Sequence record: NC_100129.1 | Source: a phage | Reading direction: 5' to 3' (one strand) | DNA: 50,984 nucleotides | Shown: positions 4,621-50,984 of the stretch, one piece after another | Layout of the letters: each line of letters starts with the position of its first letter | Numbering within the stretch: position 1 is the stretch's first letter | Program-made: the position numbers and the translations under genes | Notes under the pieces: generated by a model | Seen by the model: only the letters and a program-made list of their open reading frames with translations | The model's database searches: none | What the model was told of the DNA's origin: nothing

Positions 4621-4672
4621 AAGGGTAGTATTGGTGCGGTAACATACACCGCACCAAATAGGAGTCGATTTA

Positions 4673-6256
4673 ATGAATTTTTCATTTGAAACAAGTCAGT
4701 TATCACCGAAACAAATCATTGAAACCGCCGAATCTCAAGGTATTTCCCCTGTTCGTGTATCCATTCAGGCCAACGGATACCGCCAATCGTCAAGCTATTG
4801 GGGACAGGTGGAAGATATTAACGGCGGTAACGACCGCTACCCTGTCATTTCACTTGGGAATGATGTTGATGTAGTTGGTAAGCTGGCGCGCAATCTTGCG
4901 AGATCTGTTCAATTCCCTGAATCATCGGCCTACATGCACTTTATCGGATGTATTTCTGCCGCTATGCTTGGTCGATTCACAGTTGACTACCACGGAACCG
5001 ATCAGCCGACCGCGCTTTACGTTGTGACAAGCCAGCCTCCGTCGGCAGGTAAATCCGCGATTAACAGTCTGGCTATTGCGCCTATGGTTGCAGAAGTTGA
5101 GCGCATCAACGAGCAACGCAAGAAGGAACGGAAAAAGATACAGGCAAAACTTGCCGGACTACTAAAGGAGATGAAAAGCGAACGCTCCGGCGCAGATATG
5201 GAGATTCTATATCAAGAAAAAGAAGATCTGGAAGAAAAACTAAGCAAACTTTGCGATGTTGTTTTCCCTGTCTCCGACACCACACCAGAGGGATTAGCAA
5301 AGATAAATAACAGACAAGGAAACTTCGCGGTTATTTCTGATGAAGCAACCAGTATTAACAGTCTGCTTGGCCTGACTTACGCGAATAGCGAGCGCAAAAC
5401 TAACAGCGAACTTGTGTTAAAAGCATGGGATCACGGCCATGTTTCTATCGCCCGTTCTAATGCAGACAATAACATGAGTTTTTTTGCGCTTGGATGTATG
5501 AGTGTTATCGCCCAGGATGAAACTATTAATGGCATCATGGATGCAGGATCTCGTGGCATCGGTGTAAGCGAGCGTTTTCTACTGGTGCGCGAACAGCCGT
5601 TAATCGGTACGCGTGTATTTGTTGATGAGAATGGTGATTCAACTTACGAACCAGTAGACGGTGAATTGAAAGCGCAATACTTTCAGTTGGTGCATAACAT
5701 TATGAGCGAAATTAACGTTTCTCTGAAAGTTAGCCGTTCTGCAATGCGCGTGCTGAACATTGCACGCCAGGATATGGAACCGCATCTTGCCGACGGCGGA
5801 AAGTTTTCGCATACGATGCTACGCGGTGCGCTGGGTAAAATGGATAAGCAGGTGATCCGCATTGCTGCCGTTCTGCATGTGATACGCAATTGGTTTAATC
5901 CTGCTGGATACCCGCAAAAGTCTAGAGAGATTGACGTTGACACGATGCAAGAAGCCTTGCTGATGTTCCATGAATTGAGCAAAACGTATATCAGCGCGGC
6001 GAACGCGTCCGGCTATGCTGGTGATGATGCCGAGATGTCAAAACTGATTGAGTTAATCACCCGCCACGGTAAGGCAAATAAAGGCGTATTGAATGTCCGC
6101 GCTTTGTATGAGGCAGCACGCAAGGTAAAACCTTTCCTGGGGCAAGCTGGCGTGATGAAGCGCATAGAATCGCAACTTCTTCCGATGCTTGAGCAAAAAA
6201 ACTACGTTTGTGTTATTAATGGTGTTATTTTTGTGAATCCTGTGTTAATGGGGTAA
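4673..6256 (+). CDS. putative P-loop NTPase, replication-associated (527 aa)
   Basis: Deviant Walker A SQPPSAGKS and Walker B-like AVISDEA; large early gene; family assignment uncertain. Confidence 0.45.
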   Translation: MNFSFETSQLSPKQIIETAESQGISPVRVSIQANGYRQSSSYWGQVEDINGGNDRYPVISLGNDVDVVGKLARNLARSVQFPESSAYMHFIGCISAAMLGRFTVDYHGTDQPTALYVVTSQPPSAGKSAINSLAIAPMVAEVERINEQRKKERKKIQAKLAGLLKEMKSERSGADMEILYQEKEDLEEKLSKLCDVVFPVSDTTPEGLAKINNRQGNFAVISDEATSINSLLGLTYANSERKTNSELVLKAWDHGHVSIARSNADNNMSFFALGCMSVIAQDETINGIMDAGSRGIGVSERFLLVREQPLIGTRVFVDENGDSTYEPVDGELKAQYFQLVHNIMSEINVSLKVSRSAMRVLNIARQDMEPHLADGGKFSHTMLRGALGKMDKQVIRIAAVLHVIRNWFNPAGYPQKSREIDVDTMQEALLMFHELSKTYISAANASGYAGDDAEMSKLIELITRHGKANKGVLNVRALYEAARKVKPFLGQAGVMKRIESQLLPMLEQKNYVCVINGVIFVNPVLMG

Positions 6257-7464: not shown

Positions 7465-7952
7465 TACAGATCCCTCATGCAGTATTTAAACTCAACCGCG
7501 CGACGGTTGCGTAAACCTTTAGAGCGTTCTTTCTTTCCGGTTTTAGGATTCGTGAATTTATCCCACCGCCATAACTGCTGGCACGCTTCCGGAAATCTGC
7601 CCTGATTAATCAGTTTAAGCATTGTCGAATTGCGGAATGCACCCACACCAGCGTTAAAAGTGAAACTATACATCGCCGCTCTCATCGTGGCTGGGATTTC
7701 AACCTTCACGCGCTTGTCTACTTCATCCTTCGCCACCTTGATATGTTTTGCCAGTAGCGCATCGCATTCGCGCTTTGTGTAGGTCTTGCCGATAATCACA
7801 TCTTTTCCGGTGATTCCGGCGCATACCGTCCAGACTCCGGCAATATCTTTATATGGCGTGTATCTGATCCCTTCGATTTCCTCAAGAAGTGGAGAAGTAA
7901 GAGCAAGCGCAGCGCCGATGGCGACGGCGACGACGCTATTTCTTGCGCTCAT
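7464..7952 (-). CDS. endolysin, lysozyme-like with N-terminal signal-anchor (SAR-type, inferred)
   Basis: 162 aa; N-terminal weakly hydrophobic Ala/Gly-rich segment; [26 protein letters not shown] resembles the catalytic Glu region of phage lysozymes; lies between holin and spanin. Confidence 0.7.
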
Positions 7953-10147: not shown

Positions 10148-10167
10148 GTTTTAACAAAAAGTGCTAT
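10148..10167 (-). promoter_or_regulatory. dyad motif copy (reverse orientation)
   Basis: Minus strand reads ATAGCACTTTTTGTTAAAAC, then hairpin, CATAAT, TCATCGAAACGA, RBS, ATG of 9912-10097 gene. Confidence 0.6.
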
Positions 10168-32026: not shown

Positions 32027-32046
32027 ATAGCATTTTTTGTTAAAAG
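32027..32046 (+). promoter_or_regulatory. dyad motif copy, variant (ATAGCATTTTTTGTTAAAAG)
   Basis: Between major tail gene terminator and chaperone G start; ~12 nt from G RBS on the minus strand. Confidence 0.5.
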
Positions 32047-35779: not shown

Positions 35780-35799
35780 ATAGCACTTTTTGTTAAAGG
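35780..35799 (+). promoter_or_regulatory. dyad motif copy
   Basis: Between decoration-like gene and terminator/major capsid gene. Confidence 0.5.
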
Positions 35800-40399: not shown

Positions 40400-40417
40400 T
40401 TTAGCAATTCGTGCTAT
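40400..40417 (-). promoter_or_regulatory. dyad motif copy, palindromic variant (ATAGCACGAATTGCTAAA)
   Basis: Overlaps stop TAG of terminase large subunit; followed on minus strand by TATAAT, terminator hairpin and portal RBS. Confidence 0.55.
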
Positions 40418-41982
40418 TTATTGCGTAGACCTGCCAGTTTTTTCATGCGAGCAACCGGATCATCTGCCATATTCATTTCAAGGTTAACGGCATCAACCAG
40501 TGTGTCGACAATATCATCATGTGGATGGCTATCATCGAAAGTAAAAGCCGCCACCTCTGACAGTATCTCATCCAGCATGGGATGTGATTCAGGTAATGCC
40601 ACACGTCCAGCCTTCATTACTGGCGCTGCGTCCATAGCTCGCGTTACCTTGTCCTTGTCGCGCTGCACCGGATTGATGGCAATTGGCAGCTTTTTAGCCG
40701 CACTCTGTATCAGGCCAGTTCCCGATGATTTGTCTTCTACGTGTATGCGGCGCAACGTTCCGCACTCCTTGTTTCGCTTCCAGCATTGATTAACGAACGC
40801 TACAAAATTTGTTTCCAGTTCCGGCGCTTCCCACTTTCCGCGAACGCCATCAATGAAGTAAACGCGGTTTTTATACATCCCCCAATAGCAGATCACAGAA
40901 TAGTCGTTAAGTTCTCCTGTTTTCTGAGCGGTATCAACGGTAATGAATGTGTATTCAAAGCGATCTGGCTTCTGAACGGTTGCTCTGTCCCCGCCGCCGT
41001 AATATTGGAACCACTCCACCTTAAACACGTTTCCACCAAGCGCGATAGGATGCTGCTGGTACTGGCTTGCGAACGTGTAAGGATCTGCATTCCGCAGGGC
41101 AAGCAATTCCTCCGCGCTTTCCTTTGCAGGCCAGAAGGAGTAATGCGCCACGCCATCAATATACACGGGCTTGCTGCTTAACACGTCGCGGTCAAACTCA
41201 GGTTTCAACCAGTCAGGCAACGTTTCCCGATAATCCTCGGTAACGAGCGCCGGAATGCTCACGACCTTAAACTTGATGCCGCCCATACCGCCATTCGTCA
41301 TAAACCAAGTCGAATCATTGACGTGTAGCCGCTGCTGAACCATTACAATCGGCGTGGTGTCTTTCATTCGACGTGATCGCACGGTGTTTTTCAGGCGCAT
41401 GTGTCCGGCTTCGCGCTTAACCTTTGATAACTGGTCGTCTGGTTTATCTGGATCATCAAGAACCAGCATACCAGTAAAGCCATCATCCATGTAGCCGCCG
41501 CGCAAGCCAGTTACCTGTCCACCAATAGAGCGGGAATTAACCTGCAATTTAACTTTCCCTTTCTCCGTGACTATCAGGTCTTTTGCGCTGGCCTTAGCCA
41601 GTTTGCCAGGCCATAGTTCCTGCCATTCCGGCGATCCAATAATCTCCTTAATCCTGTTGCTATTCTGCTGCACAAGTCCGTCACTAAACGAAAGATTCAG
41701 ATTTCGCACCTTCTTGCTTTTTAGTGACGCATAAGGTGACATATGGATCGAAAATATCTCGGTTTTACCACTGCCAGGGGTTATATTGAAAATCACGTTT
41801 TGTGATTCGCCTTTGATGATTTTCTCTACTTCGCTGCACAGGTAGCTGAAATGCCAGTTACCTAAAAACTTTTGCCCCTGGAGTAGCTGGAACCAGATTC
41901 GAATCATCTTTTCGAATGAATGCTCGCTCATTTCCTTAATGGCGCGTTTCTGCGCCGCTGTTAAATCTTCCCAAATAAGCAT
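40414..41982 (-). CDS. terminase large subunit
   Basis: Walker A TPGSGKTE, ATPase then nuclease domain with conserved acidic residues; 522 aa. Confidence 0.85.
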   Translation of the reverse strand: MLIWEDLTAAQKRAIKEMSEHSFEKMIRIWFQLLQGQKFLGNWHFSYLCSEVEKIIKGESQNVIFNITPGSGKTEIFSIHMSPYASLKSKKVRNLNLSFSDGLVQQNSNRIKEIIGSPEWQELWPGKLAKASAKDLIVTEKGKVKLQVNSRSIGGQVTGLRGGYMDDGFTGMLVLDDPDKPDDQLSKVKREAGHMRLKNTVRSRRMKDTTPIVMVQQRLHVNDSTWFMTNGGMGGIKFKVVSIPALVTEDYRETLPDWLKPEFDRDVLSSKPVYIDGVAHYSFWPAKESAEELLALRNADPYTFASQYQQHPIALGGNVFKVEWFQYYGGGDRATVQKPDRFEYTFITVDTAQKTGELNDYSVICYWGMYKNRVYFIDGVRGKWEAPELETNFVAFVNQCWKRNKECGTLRRIHVEDKSSGTGLIQSAAKKLPIAINPVQRDKDKVTRAMDAAPVMKAGRVALPESHPMLDEILSEVAAFTFDDSHPHDDIVDTLVDAVNLEMNMADDPVARMKKLAGLRNK

Positions 41983-41994
41983 AAAACACCACCA

Positions 41995-42515
41995 TTAGAT
42001 ATTATCCAGAATATCGCGTACAGCCTCGCGCACTTCCTCAGCCGTCACGGATTCGATGCTGGAATCAGCCGTGGCCTCAACGTTGATGCTTGCTGGCTTG
42101 TCTATTCCGATCTCTTTGCCGATTAAGCCAGGGTTGATCATGTTGTGTGCGGCAAGTTGGAATTTTTGCTCAAATACAACGGAATCAATAAACGCCATAA
42201 CATCACTGTAACCTGGGAGTTTTCGCAGTCTCTGGATGTTGCTGTCAGAGATACCGGAAAACAAAGAAAATCCGGTCAGCGTAAACACTCGCGGCTTATG
42301 CACTTTGCTTTCATACACATCGCCCTGGAAAGATGCCGTTTCTGCCGCCTGGATGTGGTTTTGTTCTGCCCAGGTGAAGTAACGCACAGCCAGATCGAAA
42401 ATCTGTTCCGGTGTGTATCGGCTGCTGGCCTGCACGGTGACAATATCTCCGTATTTCTTGTTATATAGTTCCTTGAAGTTTTGAACCTTCACTACTGGCT
42501 CAGGATTGCGTGCCA
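41995..42515 (-). CDS. terminase small subunit
   Basis: 173 aa directly upstream of large subunit; AGGAGAAATG RBS at chosen start. Confidence 0.55.
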
Positions 42516-42565
42516 TAATCATTTCTCCTTTTTGATAACAGGGCATCATTATAGCAAATGACAGG

Positions 42566-42603
42566 CAATAAAAAACCCGCCATAAAGGCGGGCTGTTTTT
42601 CGT
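42566..42603. terminator. bidirectional terminator upstream of terminase small subunit gene
   Basis: CCCGCCATAAAGGCGGG flanked by A-run and T-run. Confidence 0.7.
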
Positions 42604-42845
42604 CACTCAAGCAATTTGTATTCCACTTTTCCGTCCATTGCTTTGATGTGCTTGTGAATTTCCTGTCCGATCCGCAGGTATCGACCGCGAACATGCCATT
42701 TCTCATCCTTGCTTGAGTAAATGGCAAACGCCGCCTTGCCTTTACGTGCAAGATGAGCTATTGCGACTGACGTCAGGCATCCCCATGCAAATGCGCCAGC
42801 AATAAAGGTGAGGATATAACTTAAAACAAATAGTAACGTACTCAT
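42603..42845 (-). CDS. small membrane protein (80 aa)
   Basis: N-terminal TM (LLFVLSYILTFIAGAFAWGCL); terminator after gene. Confidence 0.45.
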   Translation of the reverse strand: MSTLLFVLSYILTFIAGAFAWGCLTSVAIAHLARKGKAAFAIYSSKDEKWHVRGRYLRIGQEIHKHIKAMDGKVEYKLLE

Positions 42846-42991
42846 GACATTTCCTTTACAAAGTTAATGGAAAATTGATGTGTTTCAGGATTCGCCCCTG
42901 AAAGGCGTTTTGCAAGGTTAACGGCGTGCTCTGCATTAAAGGCCGCAACCTCACATTCAAAATCTTGTTTGCAAGAGGAGCAATTACGCCC
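42842..42991 (-). CDS. small Cys-rich protein (49 aa)
   Basis: Internal ATG overlapping upstream stop; CSSC...C motif. Confidence 0.35.
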   Translation of the reverse strand, partial: GRNCSSCKQDFECEVAAFNAEHAVNLAKRLSGANPETHQFSINFVKEMS

Positions 42992-43217
42992 CATCCGTCG
43001 AATCGTTAGTTTCACCTTGTAAATCACTGGCGATAACCTCACGCTTAATGCAAGTAATATTATGAATCGGGTAGGCAACATCACCGATAGAAATACACGT
43101 ATCATCACCATTAAGCTGATTTTCTGTGACTTCTACCGTAAAGCATTTATCAAAGCTACCGTAGAAAGGATGAATGACCTCATCGCGAAAGGCAATTGTA
43201 AGTTTGAACTTTTGCAT
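42984..43217 (-). CDS. hypothetical protein (77 aa)
   Basis: ORF with RBS. Confidence 0.45.
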   Translation of the reverse strand: MQKFKLTIAFRDEVIHPFYGSFDKCFTVEVTENQLNGDDTCISIGDVAYPIHNITCIKREVIASDLQGETNDSTDGA

Positions 43218-43362
43218 TTTATTTGCTCCGTAAAAAAGGCGCTACGTCTTACAGTGTCCCAGCATAGCGCCGTTGTTTGTGACTATCGCGTCACGCGTTC
43301 GGCAGCAAGGCCGCTCTTACGTTTACGGGATTGATGCTATCCAATCATGACAACGTTGTCAA

Positions 43363-43593
43363 TCATTCGCGGTCGAAAGCATTACCCCACCGCCCGCGCA
43401 AGTAACCGCACAGCCAGATAAATTGCGTGATCGTCAACATTGGCGCGATTGGTTGGTAGTGCTCTGCAATGATGCTCTTCATTACTTCATCAACATACTT
43501 CCCGCGCTTTTCTACATCCGCTTTCATCGCCTCGCCGCACTTTTTAGCCTGGCGTTTAGCTGCGTTGAATTGCGCCTCATTCATGCCGAACAT
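43363..43593 (-). CDS. hypothetical protein (~76 aa)
   Basis: Start set at MFGMNEAQ, which overlaps stop of upstream small ORF (TGATG). Confidence 0.4.
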   Translation of the reverse strand: MFGMNEAQFNAAKRQAKKCGEAMKADVEKRGKYVDEVMKSIIAEHYQPIAPMLTITQFIWLCGYLRGRWGNAFDRE

Positions 43594-43721
43594 CAGTATC
43601 CTCTCCCCTTCCATTCTTCCGCAAGTTTGAAATAGTTCATAGCTTCTTCTACATCTCCGCGCTCCAGTGCTTCCTCCTGCTTCTCTTTGCACCACTGCGA
43701 AGGCTGCTTGTACTCACCCAT
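43593..43721 (-). CDS. small hypothetical protein (42 aa)
   Basis: Manually read ORF MGEYKQPSQWCKEKQEEALERGDVEEAMNYFKLAEEWKGRGY with AAGGTGA RBS. Confidence 0.3.
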   Translation of the reverse strand: MGEYKQPSQWCKEKQEEALERGDVEEAMNYFKLAEEWKGRGY

Positions 43722-43777
43722 AAAATCACCTTACTTAAAAAATAGCTCGTTAGAATGCTATTGAGGCGCTCTAATAG

Positions 43778-44122
43778 CTATTCGCTTTCGTTAAATTTTC
43801 CATCAAGGATATTGCGGAGATTGTTTAGCGTCTTAACCTTCCAGCAATCCCATTCCGACGAACCAGGCTCAAGGTTTCTTGCGAATCCTGGCGCGTCAGT
43901 GCTCAACTCGTCGATAATGCAAGACACTTCATCAACGATAAGCTCCTTTATGTACTCTCGCTCGGCAAGATCGTCATTAATATTTTCCACCGACTCAAAA
44001 GCATGAATGACACCGCCTAAAACCTGTTGCTGCGCCTTTGCCTTGTCAAAATCATCATGAATGAAACGATGCTCTTTTTTGTTCTCGTTTGTTCCGATTT
44101 TGTAGTAGTGAATGTAAATCAT
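43778..44122 (-). CDS. hypothetical protein (114 aa)
   Basis: ORF in co-directional early cluster. Confidence 0.5.
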   Translation of the reverse strand: MIYIHYYKIGTNENKKEHRFIHDDFDKAKAQQQVLGGVIHAFESVENINDDLAEREYIKELIVDEVSCIIDELSTDAPGFARNLEPGSSEWDCWKVKTLNNLRNILDGKFNESE

Positions 44123-44427
44123 TTGTATTTCTCCGATACATGATTTGCAACTGATTGAACGTAATCAGCAAATGCCGACTCCATGCTTTCATTCTTTCGC
44201 TTCCAGTCCTCAATCTGCTGATCTCGGTAGCCATTCTCACCAAACCATGCTGCTGTTTCTGCCTGATCAGAACCAGCGGGAACAAATGCGTGTTCAAGCT
44301 GGTTAAAAACTTCACGCGCTACAGCCTCAGGAATTTTAACCGTTGCCTGAATACCGTTATCATCTCGCCAACCAAAGGCCGCTAACATAATTCGCGCTTG
44401 CTCTTCTGAAAGGTTGATCGTAATCAT
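44119..44427 (-). CDS. hypothetical protein (102 aa)
   Basis: ORF, overlapping start/stop with neighbours. Confidence 0.5.
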   Translation of the reverse strand: MITINLSEEQARIMLAAFGWRDDNGIQATVKIPEAVAREVFNQLEHAFVPAGSDQAETAAWFGENGYRDQQIEDWKRKNESMESAFADYVQSVANHVSEKYK

Positions 44428-44672
44428 TCGATAATCTCCGCTTCTTCTTTTGTCAAACTAAACCAATCTGTTTCCTTCACCTCGCCAAATTCGCCGCTAC
44501 TGTTAACTCCAGCCATAGCCCACATCTCACCGTCTTTATAAAGCTCTACAACCATTTCCTTTCCGTTTTCGAATCCAGACCACTCGCGCAATGTAGGTGA
44601 ATCTGGATCTGGACGATAGTCAACGTTGATTAACTTAACTCGAACATGGCCTACAAAACTTTTATCTTTCAT
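44424..44672 (-). CDS. hypothetical protein (82 aa)
   Basis: ORF downstream of dyad motif and hairpin. Confidence 0.5.
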   Translation of the reverse strand: MKDKSFVGHVRVKLINVDYRPDPDSPTLREWSGFENGKEMVVELYKDGEMWAMAGVNSSGEFGEVKETDWFSLTKEEAEIIE

Positions 44673-44723
44673 TTAATCTCTCCCGTCGTCGATGCGCACA
44701 TAATACAAAACCAGCCGAAGCTG

Positions 44724-44743
44724 GTTTTAACAAAAAGTGCTAT
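44724..44743 (-). promoter_or_regulatory. dyad motif copy (reverse orientation)
   Basis: Exact copy; followed on minus strand by hairpin CCAGCTTCGGCTGG and T-run. Confidence 0.6.
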
Positions 44744-45028
44744 TTATAACGCATATTCGATTTCCCATCGTGCGAACTCATCAAAATCATGTTGCGTCAG
44801 TGGGCGATCTTGAGTTGCGGCCTCTTCCATCATTTCGGTTAGAGTTTCGTTCATGAACGGGAAAGGATGCTCCAGGTCGTAGCATCCAGCCAGGCATCGT
44901 GCAAAATGTCGAACTGATTTATACTCTCCGCGATTGATAGTGTAAGGTGAATTTTTAGAATCATCCCAGCCTCGACGGCGAATTTCTCTTTCAAAGCCAT
45001 TGATAAGCATTTTTCGCATAGTTGCCAT
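44744..45028 (-). CDS. hypothetical protein (94 aa)
   Basis: ORF; stop abuts dyad motif. Confidence 0.5.
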   Translation of the reverse strand: MATMRKMLINGFEREIRRRGWDDSKNSPYTINRGEYKSVRHFARCLAGCYDLEHPFPFMNETLTEMMEEAATQDRPLTQHDFDEFARWEIEYAL

Positions 45029-45072
45029 TTTCTTTCTCCTATAGAAAACGCCACCTTGCGGCGGCGCGTGTT

Positions 45073-45273
45073 TTACTTTTTCTTTCCGGTCAGCACATAA
45101 CGCTTTCCGTTTTCGAATCCGTCACAATAGCCAGCATAACCGCCAGCCATGAAGATAATCAACCCGCCGATTGACTCAACAATGCCGCTATAATTATAAG
45201 CAAGGTAGCAACCAGCGATAAGGGCAATAAAAGTGATAATTGCTATCTTCATTCGTGATCCTATACATCGCAC
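45073..45273 (-). CDS. small membrane protein (66 aa, two TM)
   Basis: Two hydrophobic segments (IAIITFIALIAGCYLAY; LIIFMAGGYAGY). Confidence 0.45.
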   Translation of the reverse strand: MRCIGSRMKIAIITFIALIAGCYLAYNYSGIVESIGGLIIFMAGGYAGYCDGFENGKRYVLTGKKK

Positions 45274-45512
45274 TTATTAACAACAAGCAAACGAAGGCGT
45301 GATTTGCGGAATCGGTGCGCTGTTTTCGCATACATTGCCGCCGAACTGTATCGGGCAAACTCCATAGCGAACAGGCCGAATGAATCCTCTGTCAGATATT
45401 CCCAGCGACCGCGCCAGGTGCTACGACGTTGCAGGTAGTAAACTTTGCATTCAGTGCAACATACGATCCTGTATTCTGGACGAATAAGCCGCTTTAGTGC
45501 ATTGACAACCAT
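45261..45512 (-). CDS. hypothetical protein (83 aa)
   Basis: ORF, Cys pairs (CCTEC). Confidence 0.4.
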   Translation of the reverse strand: MVVNALKRLIRPEYRIVCCTECKVYYLQRRSTWRGRWEYLTEDSFGLFAMEFARYSSAAMYAKTAHRFRKSRLRLLVVNKCDV

Positions 45513-45611
45513 AATCCAAACCTCAAACAGTGAAAAATTAACAGAACGAATAGTATCACAGCCATCGCCTTATGAAAATCAAATGGCGGCTTTGGATTAG
45601 TCGAATCGACG

Positions 45612-46013
45612 TTATTTGCCAGCATTGCGCGCTATCCCCTGGTAGGTTTTGTAAAAATCATCTCCAGGATTCTTGAACTTACAGGCGTTGCGAGCAAGTC
45701 GGCGCATACGTCGCGAATCGTATCGTGCGTTCTGGAATGGTGTTTTCATGGTCTTTATGTGACAGCCGCGATGATTACGGATTCGCTTAAGGTCTGCGAT
45801 GATTCCGGTGCTGGACTTGATCACGTAATTGTCGAATCCCAGGCTATCGGTGATGATGTAGCCGAATTTAATGCGTGGGCGCTTGTAGTTCTCCAGTCTG
45901 CCGATGTAACGGGATTGGGCGGTTACAATCTCACCACGACGAAGGCCGCATTTTTCGTCTGCCCAGGTTACGCGAAATTTTGTTCCGGTGCGGATATTGC
46001 TTAGCTCTAACAT
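45612..46013 (-). CDS. hypothetical protein (133 aa)
   Basis: ORF downstream of variant dyad motif and TATAAT. Confidence 0.5.
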   Translation of the reverse strand: MLELSNIRTGTKFRVTWADEKCGLRRGEIVTAQSRYIGRLENYKRPRIKFGYIITDSLGFDNYVIKSSTGIIADLKRIRNHRGCHIKTMKTPFQNARYDSRRMRRLARNACKFKNPGDDFYKTYQGIARNAGK

Positions 46014-46070
46014 TGTTGATTCCTATGTTTACTGAACGGGGTAAATTATAGCGGAGCATTGCGCCCCGCG

Positions 46071-46088
46071 TTTAGCAATTCGTGCTAT
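46071..46088 (-). promoter_or_regulatory. dyad motif copy, palindromic variant
   Basis: ATAGCACGAATTGCTAAA overlapping stop TAG of kinase gene; TATAAT 22 nt downstream on minus strand. Confidence 0.55.
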
Positions 46089-46675
46089 TTGATTTTTGTG
46101 AAATGCCACTGCACGGTTTCTATGATTTCCTCCACCGTCTTTTCTGGCTCGCCATCGTGCAACGTGAAATCGTAATGCTTGAGGCGGTGATGATAGTCGC
46201 CCATGTCGATATAGTTTCGCGAGTCGCCATCGAACGTGTACCCCTCGCGATGCAGTCGGCAAATGTGCACTTTGTGACCTGCTTTAATCAGTGGCTTGAT
46301 TTCTTCTGGAAAGCCGCCGTCTGTTACGATAATTGCAAGGTCGCGGTACATTTCGTGAATCTGCTCAACCATTCTCCAGCCGAAATACTGTTCCCCAAAT
46401 GCTGGCTTCATTACCTCCTCGCTAATCCAGATCATGAACTGACGCGGTGATTTGCCCTGCAATATCACTTGAGGCTTTTCTTTCTGTTCCCGGTCGTTGT
46501 ACAAGTCCATAAATTCATCGTATCTGTACACACCAAGCATGGAGAACGCAATATCGAACATTGGCTGTTTGAATGATGCCTTAACTGCTGGGTATTGGTG
46601 TCCGGTAAGGTATGCCGCAATGGTGTCCTTTCCCACTCCAGGTGGCCCATTCAGGATAATGATGTCTCTTTTCAT
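46085..46675 (-). CDS. deoxynucleoside monophosphate kinase-like P-loop kinase (T4 gene 1-like)
   Basis: P-loop NGPPGVGKDT followed by YPAVKASFKQPMFDIA, resembling T4 dNMP kinase N-terminus as recalled. Confidence 0.6.
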   Translation of the reverse strand: MKRDIIILNGPPGVGKDTIAAYLTGHQYPAVKASFKQPMFDIAFSMLGVYRYDEFMDLYNDREQKEKPQVILQGKSPRQFMIWISEEVMKPAFGEQYFGWRMVEQIHEMYRDLAIIVTDGGFPEEIKPLIKAGHKVHICRLHREGYTFDGDSRNYIDMGDYHHRLKHYDFTLHDGEPEKTVEEIIETVQWHFTKIK

Positions 46676-46941
46676 TTTCTGCTCTCCACAAAAGTAATAG
46701 TCTCAACAAGTTTTGGATTAATCATGTCGCTTCGTCTAGGCTCTATGCTTGAGTCTTTATGCAAGCATCGGCCTTGCATAGCAATTTTATCTGCAAACTT
46801 TTTGCGCACACAGTCGAAGCCGTATTCATCCAGCTCTACGTTGTAGGCGACGTCTTCGCCATCAATGGACTCAATAGCGAATAGTGAATCCCTCATGTCG
46901 ATTCTGTCTATGGCCTGGAATATTTCAATTTTGCGTGTCAT
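46672..46941 (-). CDS. hypothetical protein (89 aa)
   Basis: ORF, translationally coupled to kinase gene. Confidence 0.45.
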   Translation of the reverse strand: MTRKIEIFQAIDRIDMRDSLFAIESIDGEDVAYNVELDEYGFDCVRKKFADKIAMQGRCLHKDSSIEPRRSDMINPKLVETITFVESRK

Positions 46942-47027
46942 TTCTTCGTCTCCTCGTCTGCTGTAACAACATGATGCTTTCCTCTTTCGTTGTTGATGGG
47001 CTTACTATAAAGCAAGCCCGATGGAAT

Positions 47028-47047
47028 GCTTTAACAAAAAGTGCTAT
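47028..47047 (-). promoter_or_regulatory. dyad motif copy (reverse orientation)
   Basis: Overlaps stop TAG of small ORF 47044-47205; hairpin GGGCTTGC..TAAGCCC follows. Confidence 0.55.
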
Positions 47048-47205
47048 TTACGAACGCATAACGCTGTTACATCCTTCCCACTATCTGACATGTGGAGAAC
47101 AACTTGCTTTCGCGCTTCCAGGCATCTTGATTCGCCGTGGAACTCCTGCGACTCAATAGCTGCGGAGTTGTAACTTGTGACAAAGATTAAAAGCAACCAA
47201 GTCAT
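47044..47205 (-). CDS. small secreted/membrane protein (53 aa)
   Basis: Manually read ORF MTWLLLIFVTSYNSAA...; ATG overlaps upstream stop (ATGA); its stop TAG lies inside dyad motif 47028-47047. Confidence 0.35.
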   Translation of the reverse strand: MTWLLLIFVTSYNSAAIESQEFHGESRCLEARKQVVLHMSDSGKDVTALCVRK

Positions 47206-47741
47206 TTTAAACACTCCAAGCCGTGAGATTGCAGGTGAGCGTGTGGCTTGTCGTATTCCGTGACCTGATAGGTTGTGATCCCCAGGCTGCGGAAGTGCTT
47301 AACCACGTTCGGCGAATCGTCAAAGGCGCAAACAATGTTGCCCAATCCAATAGCGCGCAAGGCTTCTTCTTTAATAACCGTATCCTTTCGGTTGTCCTCC
47401 TGGCGGCGCATGATGATTTCGTCAAACTTCACGCCGTTCTCATTCAACCATTTGCATGTTTCATAGCGCACTTCGTCGCTGCGTCCGGTCAGGATAATGA
47501 CGGCGAATCCTGATACCCATAAACCGTTAATAACAGCAATCGTGCTCTTAATCGGTGAATCTCCGGCGGCTGCCCTGTTAAATTCGCTCCACGATTCCGT
47601 AAGGTGCAAGTTTTCGGTTGGCAGCAAGTGCAAACGATGCGATCCGTCCGATAGCGTGCCATCCAGATCAACGATAACAATAGGCTTGCTGGTCATTAAT
47701 TCGTATTTCTTGCCCCATAGTTCGAAAGTGTATTTTTTCAT
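47202..47741 (-). CDS. HAD-superfamily phosphatase (nucleotidase / polynucleotide 3-phosphatase-like)
   Basis: HAD motif I IVIVDLDGTL, motif II-like ILTGR, C-terminal Asp pair (AFDDSPN). Confidence 0.6.
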   Translation of the reverse strand: MKKYTFELWGKKYELMTSKPIVIVDLDGTLSDGSHRLHLLPTENLHLTESWSEFNRAAAGDSPIKSTIAVINGLWVSGFAVIILTGRSDEVRYETCKWLNENGVKFDEIIMRRQEDNRKDTVIKEEALRAIGLGNIVCAFDDSPNVVKHFRSLGITTYQVTEYDKPHAHLQSHGLECLK

Positions 47742-47751
47742 ATATTAATCC

Positions 47752-47934
47752 TTAAAATGTTTTATGGATGTATTCAGCAGTAGCCACAAGCAAAATGATC
47801 CATCCTGGAATACTGAAGCAGGTCATAACGAATGAATTATCATAGCTCAGTCTGAATTTATGCCTCGCACAGTGGATAAGCCACGCAAAAAGAAACACAA
47901 TCCAGCCGAGAACAAGCCGAGTAAAATCATCCAT
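47752..47934 (-). CDS. small membrane protein (60 aa)
   Basis: Two hydrophobic segments. Confidence 0.4.
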   Translation of the reverse strand: MDDFTRLVLGWIVFLFAWLIHCARHKFRLSYDNSFVMTCFSIPGWIILLVATAEYIHKTF

Positions 47935-48167
47935 TATTGCACTTCCTCAAATTCCGCGTCTGTAACCTGCTCGAACTCTGCAACTAAGTTTTCAAACGCA
48001 ACGATCTCAGTTCCATTCTCGCCGTTAAGGTAAAACTTGTATCCGTTGTTGCAGTGAACATGATAAGAGTGACCATCTCTTGTGTCCTTTTTGCCCTGAT
48101 ACACCTTTCCAGGCGTGAAGAATGGTCGATTGCTCTTAACGCAAAGAAAATGCTGTTCAATAATCAT
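47934..48167 (-). CDS. hypothetical protein (77 aa)
   Basis: ORF with GGAGATAAAAAATG RBS after variant dyad motif. Confidence 0.5.
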   Translation of the reverse strand: MIIEQHFLCVKSNRPFFTPGKVYQGKKDTRDGHSYHVHCNNGYKFYLNGENGTEIVAFENLVAEFEQVTDAEFEEVQ

Positions 48168-48219
48168 TTTTTATCTCCTTCGTTGAAAGTGAGGCCATTA
48201 TACCTGGCCCCACATTTGA

Positions 48220-48239
48220 GTTTTAACAATTCGTGCTAT
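48220..48239 (-). promoter_or_regulatory. dyad motif copy, variant (ATAGCACGAATTGTTAAAAC)
   Basis: Overlaps stop TAG; hairpin with TATAAT in loop (GGCCAGGTATAATGGCC) downstream on minus strand. Confidence 0.55.
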
Positions 48240-48454
48240 TTCTCAACACACACAGTTTCATCATACCAACCCACCATTACGACCTTTCCGACAAGGTATG
48301 TGCCATAAACTTTTTTTCCTGTCGTGTGGCACTCAAGCTGTGATGACTTGTATATATAATACCCACAAACGCTGAAAAGTATGATAAATACAGTGAATAT
48401 AGAATATGCCATTATCTTGAATATTGATTCGGCGCTCATACTTTCACCTTCCAC
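48236..48454 (-). CDS. small membrane protein (72 aa)
   Basis: Central TM (IMAYSIFTVFIILFSVCGYYIY); stop TAG inside variant motif. Confidence 0.45.
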   Translation of the reverse strand: MEGESMSAESIFKIMAYSIFTVFIILFSVCGYYIYKSSQLECHTTGKKVYGTYLVGKVVMVGWYDETVCVEK

Positions 48455-49329
48455 TTAACCATCGTTCCGCGCTTGATGCTGATCTCACCTGCAACCGTCC
48501 GGTTTTTTGCGCCGCCGTAGTGAAGCAGAAGGATAACAACATCATCATGAATCTCAATCGTCTTTGGTGTAGCCGTTAATTCATACCATGTACCATCATC
48601 AAGCTGGACTCCTTTTAGCGTGGCTGCAACTGGCATATCTTCAATTGCGCCCTGCGTTACGATTTCTTGATAGGCAAAGTCGCTCTTGTCAATACGCCAG
48701 CCTCCAGGCGCTTTCATTTCGGCAGCCGCTTTGTGGATCTCCTCGCCAATGATTTGATGAATTGACGTCTTCCCGCCGCCGAATGGTGTTTCTCCAAATA
48801 AGTGTTTTGTAATATCTTCCACGTAGTACACCTTATCTTTTTCGTTGTGTGGATTGTATCTATTGTGACCATCAACAAAGAAATCAACTTTCAACTCTGA
48901 TTTCTGACCATCGCTATAAACGCCATTGTCGCGCGATGTGAAGCGAATCGTTGAATTACCAACCGTGTAGAACGTGATCGGGTACTTGATATTGTCCACA
49001 CTTAAGCACCACAGCTTTTTGTAGTCGCATGTTTTCATCTCGACCATCTGAATCTCTGCGCGTTCCGGTGAGCGCACTGGCAACACCTGGCCTTTATATG
49101 GCTTGTAGTGGAAGCTGGTATATCCTGGCATTGCATAGCCATAGTCTTTAAGGGAGTTGTAGTGCGTATTGTGTGCATCAATAAAGTGTTCAATCTCAAT
49201 TGTTGATGGGCTTAGTTTGTCGCTATTCATATCAACCTTATGGCATGTTTTTTCATCGGTAAAAATGTAATGACCAATGCCGCGAGATTCGAATGTGATC
49301 GGGAATTTAATGTCAGCAAGTTTTAACAT
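48436..49329 (-). CDS. hypothetical protein with internal tandem duplication (297 aa)
   Basis: Two ~95-aa N-terminal repeats (KFPITFESRGIGHYIFT / KYPITFYTVGNSTIRFT) plus Gly-rich C-terminal domain; function unknown. Confidence 0.55.
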   Translation of the reverse strand: MLKLADIKFPITFESRGIGHYIFTDEKTCHKVDMNSDKLSPSTIEIEHFIDAHNTHYNSLKDYGYAMPGYTSFHYKPYKGQVLPVRSPERAEIQMVEMKTCDYKKLWCLSVDNIKYPITFYTVGNSTIRFTSRDNGVYSDGQKSELKVDFFVDGHNRYNPHNEKDKVYYVEDITKHLFGETPFGGGKTSIHQIIGEEIHKAAAEMKAPGGWRIDKSDFAYQEIVTQGAIEDMPVAATLKGVQLDDGTWYELTATPKTIEIHDDVVILLLHYGGAKNRTVAGEISIKRGTMVKWKVKV

Positions 49330-49406
49330 GGTATTTCTCCTGATTGGTTTTGTGGGCGACGCCGTGCCGCCCTATGTGATTTATTATGCCTGGTTATCGT
49401 TTTCGA

Positions 49407-49426
49407 GTTTTAACAAAAAGTGCTAT
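49407..49426 (-). promoter_or_regulatory. dyad motif copy (reverse orientation)
   Basis: Exact copy; CATAAT 22 nt downstream on minus strand. Confidence 0.6.
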
Positions 49427-49612
49427 TTAGAATTTTACCTCTTCCACAAGCTCAACCATTTTGTAACCAAGACGATAAGAGTCACCAAACAACAAGATCC
49501 CCACAAATTCATCGTGGCTTATTGACTCTTTGTCAACCGTTCTAAGCTCGCCGTTGTGAATCACAGTATCGCCGATCTTGATTTCTGATTTATGGACTAA
49601 TTTCGTTTTCAT
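49427..49612 (-). CDS. hypothetical protein (61 aa)
   Basis: ORF in early cluster. Confidence 0.45.
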   Translation of the reverse strand: MKTKLVHKSEIKIGDTVIHNGELRTVDKESISHDEFVGILLFGDSYRLGYKMVELVEEVKF

Positions 49613-49627
49613 CTATTCACCTGCTAA

Positions 49628-49828
49628 TCAAAAGAAAGCTACATAGTTTGCAATGCCTTTGGCGTCGTCGTTTGGCATTGCTTTTACAGCCAGGTCATAA
49701 CCCGCCTCTACCTTCTGCTTTGCTGTTTCTTCGTTGTAGCCCCAGATAACCAGGATTTTAACTACGTTTTCTTTGTTCAGGACTTTAAGGTCTTTTGTGA
49801 TGCGACGTGCCATTTTTTGTTTCCTCAA
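49628..49828 (-). CDS. hypothetical protein (66 aa)
   Basis: ORF with GAGGAAACAAAAAATG RBS after dyad motif. Confidence 0.5.
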   Translation of the reverse strand: MRKQKMARRITKDLKVLNKENVVKILVIWGYNEETAKQKVEAGYDLAVKAMPNDDAKGIANYVAFF

Positions 49829-49870
49829 TCTCGTTTCGATGAGGCTATTATGCCAGGTTTTGCACCTGGC

Positions 49871-49890
49871 GTTTTAACAAAAAGTGCTAT
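49871..49890 (-). promoter_or_regulatory. dyad motif copy (reverse orientation)
   Basis: Overlaps stop TAG of lipoprotein gene; hairpin, CATAAT, CCTCATCGAAACGAG leader, RBS follow. Confidence 0.6.
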
Positions 49891-50150
49891 TTCACGCTTG
49901 TTGTGTTCTGGTAGTGACTAACCGACTTACCTTCGTTAGTTGACCAGTTTGCGCTACCCTGGCAGTTGGTAAAGTACACGTATCGGCTATCGCTGAACCT
50001 GTACACATCGCAACCATCGACTGTAAATAGTTTTCTGACGTTGTAAGTATCGGCAGGGTTAGCCATTTGTGCATCGACGTAAGCACCATCACCATTACAT
50101 CCGGTCAGGAATGCTGTTGCCATAAAAACCGCCATTAATGCCTTATTCAT
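49887..50150 (-). CDS. small lipoprotein (87 aa)
   Basis: Signal peptide plus lipobox FLTGC; GAGGAG RBS; start overlaps upstream stop region. Confidence 0.5.
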   Translation of the reverse strand: MNKALMAVFMATAFLTGCNGDGAYVDAQMANPADTYNVRKLFTVDGCDVYRFSDSRYVYFTNCQGSANWSTNEGKSVSHYQNTTSVK

Positions 50151-50151
50151 T

Positions 50152-50613
50152 TCATTTCTCCTCGTTAACAAGATTGCGGATCATTTCCTGGTAGCGGCTT
50201 ATTCCTTCGCAAGCTCCAGCCAGTTTATCGCCTTGCATATCGGTAACGTTCGGCATTGATGCAAGAATGCGCGCGGCGAATTTTTCCACCGCCTTTGCCT
50301 GGACTGCTGGCAAGTCCTCGCTCGTTATCACCTTGCGCTTAACGTCGCGATTCAGCGTTAGCACATACTCTTTATTGTCGTCAGTTTCCTCAGTCCTGAT
50401 TCGCACCGCGCCAACCGCTTTAACTTCCGGCACTCGGTTGATGATAGTGCGGCTGTATGCCTGGTTTTTGGTGATCTTGTAGTAATCGTCACCGCTTAGG
50501 CTTGATGCCAGGTCGGTAAGCGAGATCCTAAACTCTGAAAACTCACCACTTGCCAGGCGGCGGCCAATTTCCCGCAGCCATTCGCAATAGTCCTTAGATG
50601 TCTTTTGATTCAT
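50152..50613 (-). CDS. hypothetical protein (153 aa), first gene of long minus-strand unit
   Basis: ORF with AGGAGG RBS adjacent to the large non-coding control region. Confidence 0.5.
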   Translation of the reverse strand: MNQKTSKDYCEWLREIGRRLASGEFSEFRISLTDLASSLSGDDYYKITKNQAYSRTIINRVPEVKAVGAVRIRTEETDDNKEYVLTLNRDVKRKVITSEDLPAVQAKAVEKFAARILASMPNVTDMQGDKLAGACEGISRYQEMIRNLVNEEK

Positions 50614-50984
50614 GGTTAGCCTCCTGTTGACCAGTTGCCGCCCATTATAAGTGCCTTTTAATTAGTGTCAATGTTTATTTTGTCCGTATAACGTTCGCGT
50701 CCTGTTCGCGTTGCCGACGTTTTGAGATAATCGCTACATAACCACATGATTTGCAATAAGTTTTTGCCGCTTGTTTTCTTTCTGTTCGCGCTGTTAGCGT
50801 AATATCGCAATAAAAGTATATATACATACTCATTCCACCAGGCGCGCAACTATCCATATATATACCAACAAAGCGACACCGCAACCATCACATACCACAC
50901 TAACAACGCTAACAAGAAATAACACATAAATATATACATAAATAAATATTCTTTATTTTCAATGTATTATAAGGGATTTATTTT
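50614..50984. other. large non-coding control region at window end (continues at 1-360 if circular/permuted)
   Basis: Three GTTCGCG repeats (50693, 50704, 50784); inverted copies at 56-62 and 66-72; A/C-rich tract and second copy of AT-rich element near 50935. Confidence 0.6.

Follow-up and report, generated by a model that had tools for sequence, protein, structure and literature searches.

In T5 (pre-early region) and T7 (class I genes), small genes clustered close to a genome end behind host-type promoters serve host shut-off and anti-restriction. For the T1-like phages, which are classic and industrially troublesome, nobody knows how transcription is scheduled. The re-annotation of phage TLS recognizes three canonical promoters only and leaves a 21-nucleotide (nt) repeat unexplained. 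German et al. (2024; PMC11447400) report 21 copies of this repeat, aaATAGCACnnnTTGnTAAAA, in TLS, note it also in T1, Rtp and Rogue1, divide it into the subclasses TTT, GAA and AAA, and leave its role between a stoperator, an enhancer site and an UP-like element. A second described system is that of the promoter-early stem-loop (PeSL) cassettes in the hyperplastic regions of T4-type phages (Arbiol 2010, PMC2839356; Comeau 2014, PMC4122927). Here we analyze a block of 25 small genes, g1 to g25, at positions 50613–42603 on the minus strand of the sequence record NC_100129.1. The whole stretch of 50,984 bp, which we refer to as the window, is the complete genome of a T1-like Warwickvirus (Drexlerviridae; Tempevirinae), and its block contains six copies of the repeat and, between g22 and g23, a structured RNA.

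We think it probable that this block is a Drexlerviridae accessory arm, placed between a pac-proximal divergent control region and terS and composed of short, independently promoted units that would be read by the host RNA polymerase and that carry a conserved core together with cargo that turns over. Transcription would begin at one consensus sigma-70 promoter at the head of the block, at a second canonical promoter serving a structured leader or small RNA, and at six repeat promoters, in each of which a family-wide 20-mer at about -51 to -32 stands in front of a -10 hexamer. Hairpins and terminators would separate the units from one another, and a strong terminator would end the block before terS. 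The cargo consists of a family-wide core (g1, g9, g12, g19, g22 and g24) and of fast-turnover ORFans, a third of them predicted to be envelope-targeted, whose gain, loss and exchange would take place mainly at the promoter cassettes.

As a gene array the block is real but ordinary, being the accessory-gene arm common to all T1-like phages and a known hallmark of them. The array alone is of little weight: more than 170 T1-like genomes on deposit have it annotated, for the most part as hypothetical proteins. What is added here is the promoter geometry of the published repeat, a PeSL-like tie to gene exchange and a conserved structured RNA. A megablast search of 42603–50613 against deposited phages returns 170 records, T1-like coliphages almost throughout, headed by MatMar (97%; the window is its reverse complement, with another start point) and BabyEgg (96%) and followed by BEBK14 and WaterSpirit, all of them Warwickvirus. 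The block is syntenic with T1 gp77–gp55 and TLS gp01–gp28, where a run of small open reading frames (ORFs) is likewise closed by a terminator right before terS. The position and orientation relative to terS, the length of about 8 kb and the number of small ORFs (23–28) are shared, as are the 21-nt repeat, a Pnkp-type phosphatase, a P-loop gene resembling dNMP (deoxynucleoside monophosphate) kinases, and homologues of g1 (none detectable in T1), g19, g22 and g24. However, for more than half of the block ORFs no homologue can be detected in T1, TLS or Rtp, and this window is without both the T4 Stp-like peptide of TLS and Rtp and the HNH endonuclease of T1.

The block is co-oriented with terS and lies between it and an AT-rich, non-coding divergent control region of about 650 nt that runs across the window ends (50614–50984 and 1–282). 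The block forms one arm of this region; the other arm is on the plus strand from position 283, with small genes first and then a methyltransferase and a helicase. The layout is similar to those of the T5 pre-early and T7 class I regions but no homology was detected, so that the likeness is one of analogy only, and we know of no evidence for stepwise DNA entry in T1-like phages.

Geometry of the 21-nt repeat and the predicted limits of the transcription units

The recurring intergenic element of the block is a non-palindromic 20-mer, ATAGCACTTTTTGTTAAAAC. Allowing up to three mismatches there are 16 copies in the window against 0 expected, and under a looser pattern the count is 21 where 1.7 would be expected. 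The element fits the published consensus in being intergenic, in pointing along transcription and in lying about 76 nt before the start codon, and both the TTT and the GAA subclasses are present. Six copies lie in the block, upstream of g3, g5, g7, g11, g13 and g18, and the rest precede replication, recombination and lysis genes; examples of repeat sites are those at 283, 3926 and 6770 on the plus strand and at 10166, 11205, 44742 and 49889 on the minus strand. The first-pass annotation had held that most genes of the block are preceded by a dyad motif and so form a co-regulated set. The first part is wrong in number and the second is not supported, as the recurring element stands upstream of only 6 of the 25 genes and precedes the replication, recombination and lysis genes equally; the repeat, published and genome-wide in T1-like phages, thus delimits no regulon specific to the block.

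The position of the repeat relative to -10-like hexamers (at least 4 of 6 matches, with A2 and T6; offsets are counted from the TTG of the repeat) is largely fixed. Such a hexamer starts 27–28 nt after the TTG in 16 of 20 window copies, and in each of T1, TLS and Rtp it is found at exactly +28 in 15–16 of 18–20 copies, other offsets being almost empty. Pooled over these four divergent genomes, about 80% of 77 copies have the +28 hexamer. The 20-mer is thus placed at about -51 to -32, with its centre near -41.5 and no canonical -35 at normal spacing, and a semi-conserved CATCGAAACGA is seen downstream of the hexamer at the expected start site. Because of this fixed offset (+27/28) in four genomes we read the repeat as a promoter element, in effect the upstream half of a promoter, for which an UP-like element and a class-II-type activator site would both fit. 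The repeat itself has been published already; the fixed geometry between it and the -10, and the variable dyad that accompanies it, are new here.

This dyad is evident when the 36 nt from the spacer through the -10 to the discriminator are folded: over 66 copies the mean is -9.9 kcal/mol, against -4.2 kcal/mol for shuffles (Wilcoxon p=3e-11). Of these copies 38 can form a perfect stem of 5 bp or more, with the -10 downstream of the stem in 13, enclosed by it in 17 and overlapped by it in 8. The sequences of the dyad arms vary between copies, and the dyad, present at 5 of the 6 cassettes of the block, is presumably what the earlier annotation saw.

All six cassettes are on the minus strand, as are the block features described below. 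Cassette 1 (49847–49892) contains aaATAGCACTTTTTGTTAAAAC, a 7-bp GC hairpin and CATAAT at +28, and cassette 2 (49383–49428) also has CATAAT at +28 and is the one with no dyad. Cassettes 3 (48197–48241) and 5 (46045–46090) belong to the GAA subclass; the dyad of the former brackets TATAAT, and in the latter a hairpin is followed by TATAAT. At cassette 4 (47004–47049) the dyad GGGCTT...AAGCCC brackets TATAGT, while cassette 6 (44700–44745) has a terminator-like hairpin, AAAACCAGC-TTCG-GCTGGTTTT, and then TATTAT.

The promoter at the head of the block (50644–50671; TTGACA-16-TATAAT, 12/12) lies 30 nt upstream of the g1 ATG and is without the 21-nt repeat. It is kept at 12/12 in Warwickvirus and at 11/12 in Hanrivervirus relatives; this arrangement of promoter and g1 was not found in T1, TLS or Rtp. 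Within the block, intrinsic termination is predicted at 45048–45067, between g16 and g17, and the hairpin of cassette 6 is also counted among the intrinsic terminators. The array ends at a strong bidirectional intrinsic terminator (42574–42594) with an 8-bp GC-rich stem and a U-tract, situated between g25 and terS. The latter gene (41995–42522; 175 amino acids (aa), GP3_package) is the downstream border and falls outside the array, and an extended -10, TGCTATAAT, can be read directly from the sequence upstream of it at 42548–42556. The block had initially been described as the leader of the terminase unit, a description that does not survive the strong terminator at 42594–42574 and the separate extended -10 of terS; the block's own promoters, the internal terminators and the terminator before terS indicate several units rather than a terminase leader.

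In the structural block further downstream (22–40 kb) the sense-oriented repeat is nearly missing. There are at least eight strong sense-strand terminators there and no sense repeat promoters, with the exception of an aberrant copy at the terL–portal junction. This GAA-class copy (40400–40416, minus strand) departs from the +28 geometry, with its TATAAT at +14, and is directly followed by a strong terminator (40386–40365). Two further copies, at 32027–32046 and 35780–35799, are antisense (plus strand) within the minus-strand structural genes, and could be antisense promoters; the one at 32028 has a -10-like TAGATT at +28 and then a hairpin.

Cargo, gene exchange at the cassettes and alternative explanations

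The 25 ORFs tile 50613–42603, encode 42–297 aa with no internal stops, and nearly all have a recognisable ribosome-binding site (RBS). Eleven junctions overlap by 1–19 nt (ATGA, TAATG, TGATG or longer), so that the dense array of about 25 small minus-strand genes with overlapping start and stop codons reported previously is borne out. When the block genes were compared with 13 phages by tblastn, g1, g9, g12, g19, g22, g24 and part of g5 emerged as a conserved core, and the remaining genes turn over fast. The pair g3 (49628–49813; 61 aa, DUF7421) and g4 (49427–49612; 61 aa, phrog_3623), which share a patchy distribution, is missing in the four closest relatives and yet is 93–100% identical (98–100% for g3) in tinuso-group and Hanrivervirus phages. 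Allele swaps that run against the overall phylogeny are seen for g7 (47934–48167; 77 aa, acidic, phrog_9122), of which BabyEgg, BEBK14 and WaterSpirit have a 32–38% identical allele instead, and for g10, g16 and g20.

The cassettes are found at syntenic positions, all six of them, in the eleven Tempevirinae compared. On our reading of the gene and cassette map, 7 of 9 distinct variable slots directly adjoin a cassette. Breakpoints of blastn homology fall in the cassettes in 11 of 38 clusters, whereas the cassettes make up 6.8% of the block (binomial p=3e-5), and breakpoints occur at each of the 6 cassette junctions but at 8 of the 18 remaining ones (Fisher p=0.022). One slot appears to bear the scar left by a deletion between short repeats. 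It lies between cassette 4 and g11 and contains a 10-codon mini-ORF (ATGTTGTTACAGCAGACGAGGAGACGAAGAAATGA; 46942–46978, minus strand); at exactly this place MatMar, BabyEgg and BEBK14 have two additional genes on about 460–560 nt, and both junctions share a 12-nt sequence.

These features recall the T4-type PeSL cassettes, in which, as here, a short repeated promoter and a GC stem-loop flank ORFans in a plastic region and coincide with the boundaries of indels and replacements. There are differences, however, in that the conserved part here is the 20-mer at -51 to -32 and the sigma-70 -35/-10 spacing of PeSL is lacking, in that the stem-loop lies inside the promoter and is mostly without a U-tract, and in that replication, recombination and lysis genes have such cassettes as well.

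Searches of Pfam, PHROGs, PADLOC and PDB sequences assign a function to only two of the 25 proteins, g9 and g12; for the other 23, Pfam, PHROGs and PADLOC give no functional annotation, the matches being to PHROGs of unknown function or DUFs where there are any. The first-pass annotation recognized a HAD phosphatase and a dNMP-kinase-like protein, and both identifications stand. The product of g9 (47202–47741; 179 aa, DxDxT = DLDGT) matches PF25109 HAD_PNKP at E=5e-21. Its PDB alignment is limited to the phosphatase half of T4 Pnkp (residues 202–298 of 301), that with PHROG 505 covers positions 153–292 only, and by both alignments it is without an N-terminal P-loop 5'-kinase domain. As g9 corresponds to the phosphatase half of Pnkp alone, it is predicted to be a stand-alone HAD 3'-phosphatase, and 'phosphatase' is a more accurate label than the GenBank 'polynucleotide kinase', which is unjustified because there is no kinase domain. 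The g12 protein (46085–46675; 196 aa) has a P-loop (GPPGVGKDT) and matches phrog_139 'dNMP kinase' at E=2.6e-50, although a PDB sequence search gave no match.

Seven of the 25 proteins are predicted to be envelope-directed. One is g2 (49887–50150; 87 aa, DUF4884), a predicted lipoprotein, as had been proposed, in which the lipobox L-T-G-C ends the signal peptide (read directly from the sequence, MNKALMAVFMATAFLTGC). Hydrophobic segments of transmembrane (TM) strength are present in five small proteins, one more than the four membrane proteins counted previously: g6 (48236–48439; 67 aa, one segment; among the relatives compared, in BabyEgg only), g8 (47752–47934; 60 aa, two segments), g14 (45494–45625; 43 aa, one segment), g16 (45073–45252; 59 aa, with a possible lipobox IAGC) and g25 (42603–42845; 80 aa, an N-terminal segment, DUF7299). 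To these is added g10 (47044–47205; 53 aa, phrog_5579), whose hydrophobic N-terminus is signal-peptide-like.

The phosphatase invites comparison with the Pnkp/Stp/PrrC circuit of T4. The HAD 3'-phosphatase domain of Pnkp is present in g9, and homologues of T4 Stp (72–79% identity over 18–24 residues) lie in the syntenic blocks of TLS and Rtp, beside the phosphatase; the 5'-kinase domain, an RNA ligase in the block and Stp in the window are, by contrast, not seen. We infer that the block is expressed early, and that its cargo may act in host takeover, superinfection exclusion, nucleotide salvage or anti-defence. The previous comparison with the early accessory blocks of virulent phages is reasonable given the synteny with T1 and TLS, the sigma-70 head promoter and the high mosaicism, and the TLS paper calls the homologous genes 'presumptive early gene products', the genes for host-DNA degradation being still unidentified there. 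The many predicted envelope proteins and the Stp homologues of TLS and Rtp are further circumstantial signs of an early, host-directed role. Neither Stp nor a match to a defence model was found here, and a host-takeover or anti-defence role of the block would be plausible at most. The literature search for anti-defence genes of Drexlerviridae returned nothing relevant. The variable slots bounded by cassettes would be the first places to look for host-specific accessory functions such as exclusion and anti-defence.

Several results weigh against the account of independently promoted units with accessory cargo. PADLOC gives 0 matches for the ten block proteins scanned, so that no anti-defence or defence family is recognized among this cargo, and no Stp-like peptide (about 26–30 aa, core HNEHVMQFYR) is found in the window or in Warwickvirus or Hanrivervirus relatives. 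In the literature searched, neither transcripts nor their timing nor phenotypes are documented for any T1-like phage. The relatives used for the breakpoints are non-independent samples, and as most intergenic DNA belongs to the cassettes, which are themselves conserved islands, the enrichment of breakpoints in them is partly expected. Finally, the nearest -35-like hexamers of the repeat promoters stand at spacers of 19 nt (TTAAAA) or 22 nt (TTGTTA), and with this departure from canonical -35 spacing these promoters are putative in activity and class. It is also the lack of a canonical -35 that favours taking the repeat as an operator ('stoperator'), or as a recombination or packaging signal, bound by a phage protein, with the -10-like hexamers being incidental; German et al. 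(PMC11447400) name the stoperator and enhancer options, and the concentration of breakpoints at the cassettes would suit a recombination signal. We nevertheless find this quite improbable, since incidental hexamers would not be expected to keep to the single offset of +28, as about 80% of the 77 pooled copies do, nor to be followed by the semi-conserved start region.

A different possibility is that the block consists mostly of selfish or neutral, moron-like ORFans whose insertion the cassettes ease, and that only the few conserved genes matter, in salvage or development. The extreme differences in gene presence between phages that are 95–97% identical speak for this, as does the confinement of most of the families to T1-like contigs of about 50 kb, and T1 and TLS degrade host DNA and reuse its nucleotides, which suits a core of kinase and phosphatase. 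Yet the ORFs are intact and tightly packed with good RBSs, several alleles are 93–100% identical across genera, implying recent successful transfer and purifying selection, and targeting to the envelope, predicted for one third of the proteins, is a usual mark of exclusion or of the timing of lysis; we therefore judge selfish cargo to be a somewhat unlikely explanation. Still another reading would make the block the 5' leader of a single long late operon that goes on into the terminase and structural genes. The block is oriented like the terS-terL-portal-head-tail genes and no gene on the opposite strand interrupts it, but the GC-rich terminator between g25 and terS, the extended -10 belonging to terS, the eight promoter-like elements and further terminators within the block, and the strong sense-strand terminators of the structural block itself make a single late operon very improbable. 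We accordingly retain short, independently promoted units as the preferred description. The repeat geometry, the cassettes as points of ORFan exchange and the covarying RNA just upstream of the late genes together make the scheduling question a testable one.

The structured RNA between g22 and g23

The 145-nt gap between g22 and g23 holds, in order, a promoter, a 5' block, two short hairpins and a third hairpin followed by U6. The promoter (43334–43362) reads TTGACA-17-(TGG)TAGCAT, with an extended -10, and lacks the 21-nt repeat. A perfect palindrome, TTGACAACGTTGTCAA, overlaps its -35 (43347–43362, minus strand) in this phage and in MatMar, and is not seen in more distant relatives. The structured RNA of about 96 nt (43232–43329) consists of the 5' block CCGUAAACGUAAGAG, hairpin 1, AACGCG, hairpin 2 (loop GCGAUA) and hairpin 3, the loop core of which is CUGUAA in the window and CCGUAA in most relatives. 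In the clade of the window hairpin 3 and U6 form an intrinsic terminator, the end of which is 14 nt before the g23 ATG.

Copies of the RNA were collected from 79 IMG/VR loci fetched by means of g22 homologues and from T1, TLS and Rtp, giving 59 distinct copies. For 25 diverse copies, 96.4% of the cells of the two-hairpin core are paired, compared with 67.5% in shuffles and 20–54% in slid controls, and compensatory double changes are found in 8 of its 9 pairs. The covariation score of the core is 0.76 versus 0.26, a value reached by 0 of 500 shuffles, and RNAalifold returns a structure identical to this core. Hairpin 3 covaries widely around the CCGUAA loop core. A covariance model finds one copy per genome, always at this position (43329–43270 in the window, 67 bits, E=2e-15; T1 7621–7681, TLS 7821–7879, Rtp 4648–4703). 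The sense strand is favoured because of the counts of G-U versus A-C, 7 versus 2, and because of the orientation of the promoter and terminator. The RNA is strongly conserved across the Drexlerviridae, although not in every detail: Warwickvirus, Hanrivervirus and several other clades have the terminal U-tract, the copies in T1, TLS and Rtp are without it, and a Klebsiella-type short form lacks hairpin 2.

This RNA is new to the present analysis and appears to be undescribed. A search of Rfam 15 gives no match at E<=1 over 41900–50984, a scan of the block for tRNAs found none, and the literature search for an RNA described in T1-like phages gave nothing relevant. In Rtp (about 4750–4880) and in one IMG/VR contig, tRNA genes lie downstream of the promoter region of the RNA element, replacing small protein genes. 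For the RNA itself, roles in attenuation or antitermination, as a leader that confers stability or as a small RNA acting in trans are all conceivable. We advance only tentatively, and as an unlikely proposal at present, that it represents a new regulatory class that would gate sigma-70 immediate-early transcription into g23–g25 and the terminator-studded packaging and structural genes. Gating or antitermination is conceivable because the co-oriented downstream block is rich in terminators and lacks sense repeat promoters. By analogy, the gate could be an attenuator read through by a phage factor, as with lambda Q and 6S RNA, or a put-like RNA conferring resistance to terminators. If true, a gating RNA and repeat promoters centred at -41.5 would explain how gene timing is achieved in T1-like phages, which have neither their own polymerase nor their own sigma factor.

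The closest described arrangements are the lambda PR'-6S RNA-tR' segment and HK022 put, which resemble this locus in having a short, structured, promoter-proximal transcript (here a predicted one) and an intrinsic terminator, co-oriented and upstream of terminator-rich late genes; promoter, RNA and terminator occur together in the window and in several clades. They differ from it in that there is no similarity of sequence or model (no Rfam match), in that the relatives' records viewed contain no Q-like annotation, no search aimed at Q having been made, in that T1, TLS and Rtp lack the terminal U-tract, and in that three small genes and another terminator intervene before terS.

Three other interpretations of the RNA region were given up. 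The 5' block includes UAAGAGCG, which we take to be the reverse complement of lambda boxA (CGCUCUUA), and a link with boxA was rejected, as the sense strand is favoured by the orientation and counts given above. An outer stem between the 5' end of the RNA and the U-tract is not kept in relatives, and a sigma-70-dependent pause element in the initial transcribed region is inconsistent between clades.

Remaining genes and further observations

The first gene of the block, g1 (50152–50613; 153 aa, DUF7174), has a predicted winged-helix-like domain and two long helices. Despite this model, the idea that g1 is a universal regulator binding the repeat was speculation only and was set aside, because T1 carries the repeat and yet has no g1 homologue detectable by tblastn (hhalign probability 0.3%), and because T1, TLS and Rtp do not keep the pairing of head promoter and g1. 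The largest ORF, g5 (48436–49329; 297 aa, phrog_7116), has an N-terminal unit of about 100 aa that is duplicated internally. Its AlphaFold2 (AF2) model is unusable at a predicted local distance difference test (pLDDT) score of 41, probably owing to an alignment that is too shallow (85–98% identity).

Two basic proteins without family assignment are encoded by g13 (45612–46013; 133 aa, strongly basic with 30 K+R against 11 D+E) and g15 (45261–45512; 83 aa). Those of g18 (44424–44672; 82 aa, phrog_5684), g20 (43778–44122; 114 aa, phrog_11192) and g23 (42984–43217; 77 aa, no family, not in TLS, T1 or Rtp) are acidic. The others are g11 (46672–46941; 89 aa, no function assigned), g17 (44744–45028; 94 aa, phrog_8758), g19 (44119–44427; 102 aa, DUF7180), g21 (43593–43721; 42 aa, phrog_1312) and two family-wide genes, g22 (43363–43593; 76 aa, phrog_303; T1 gp59, TLS gp24, Rtp15) and g24 (42842–43027; phrog_2919), which has a CxxC motif. 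All 25 ORFs as first called start with ATG; for g24 the start is more probably the GTG at 43027 (61 aa, as in relatives) than the ATG at 42994 (50 aa).

The GenBank labels of the relatives are inconsistent, and those of the block homologues are probably wrong in places. Homologues of g13 and of the g8 slot are called 'HNH endonuclease', that of g5 'tail fiber protein', a 70-aa ORF 'methyltransferase type 11' and g22 'inducer of pleiotropic effects'. Among the megablast matches to the block are 20 records titled 'Campylobacter phage' (host C. jejuni), an odd host for DNA shared with E. coli T1-like phages, which may reflect mislabelling or contamination. The AT-rich control region (50614–50984 and 1–282) is a candidate for pac, origin or control functions; it contains (TA)n-like tracts, and a comparable tract is seen at the left end of T1 beside the annotated terminal repeat.

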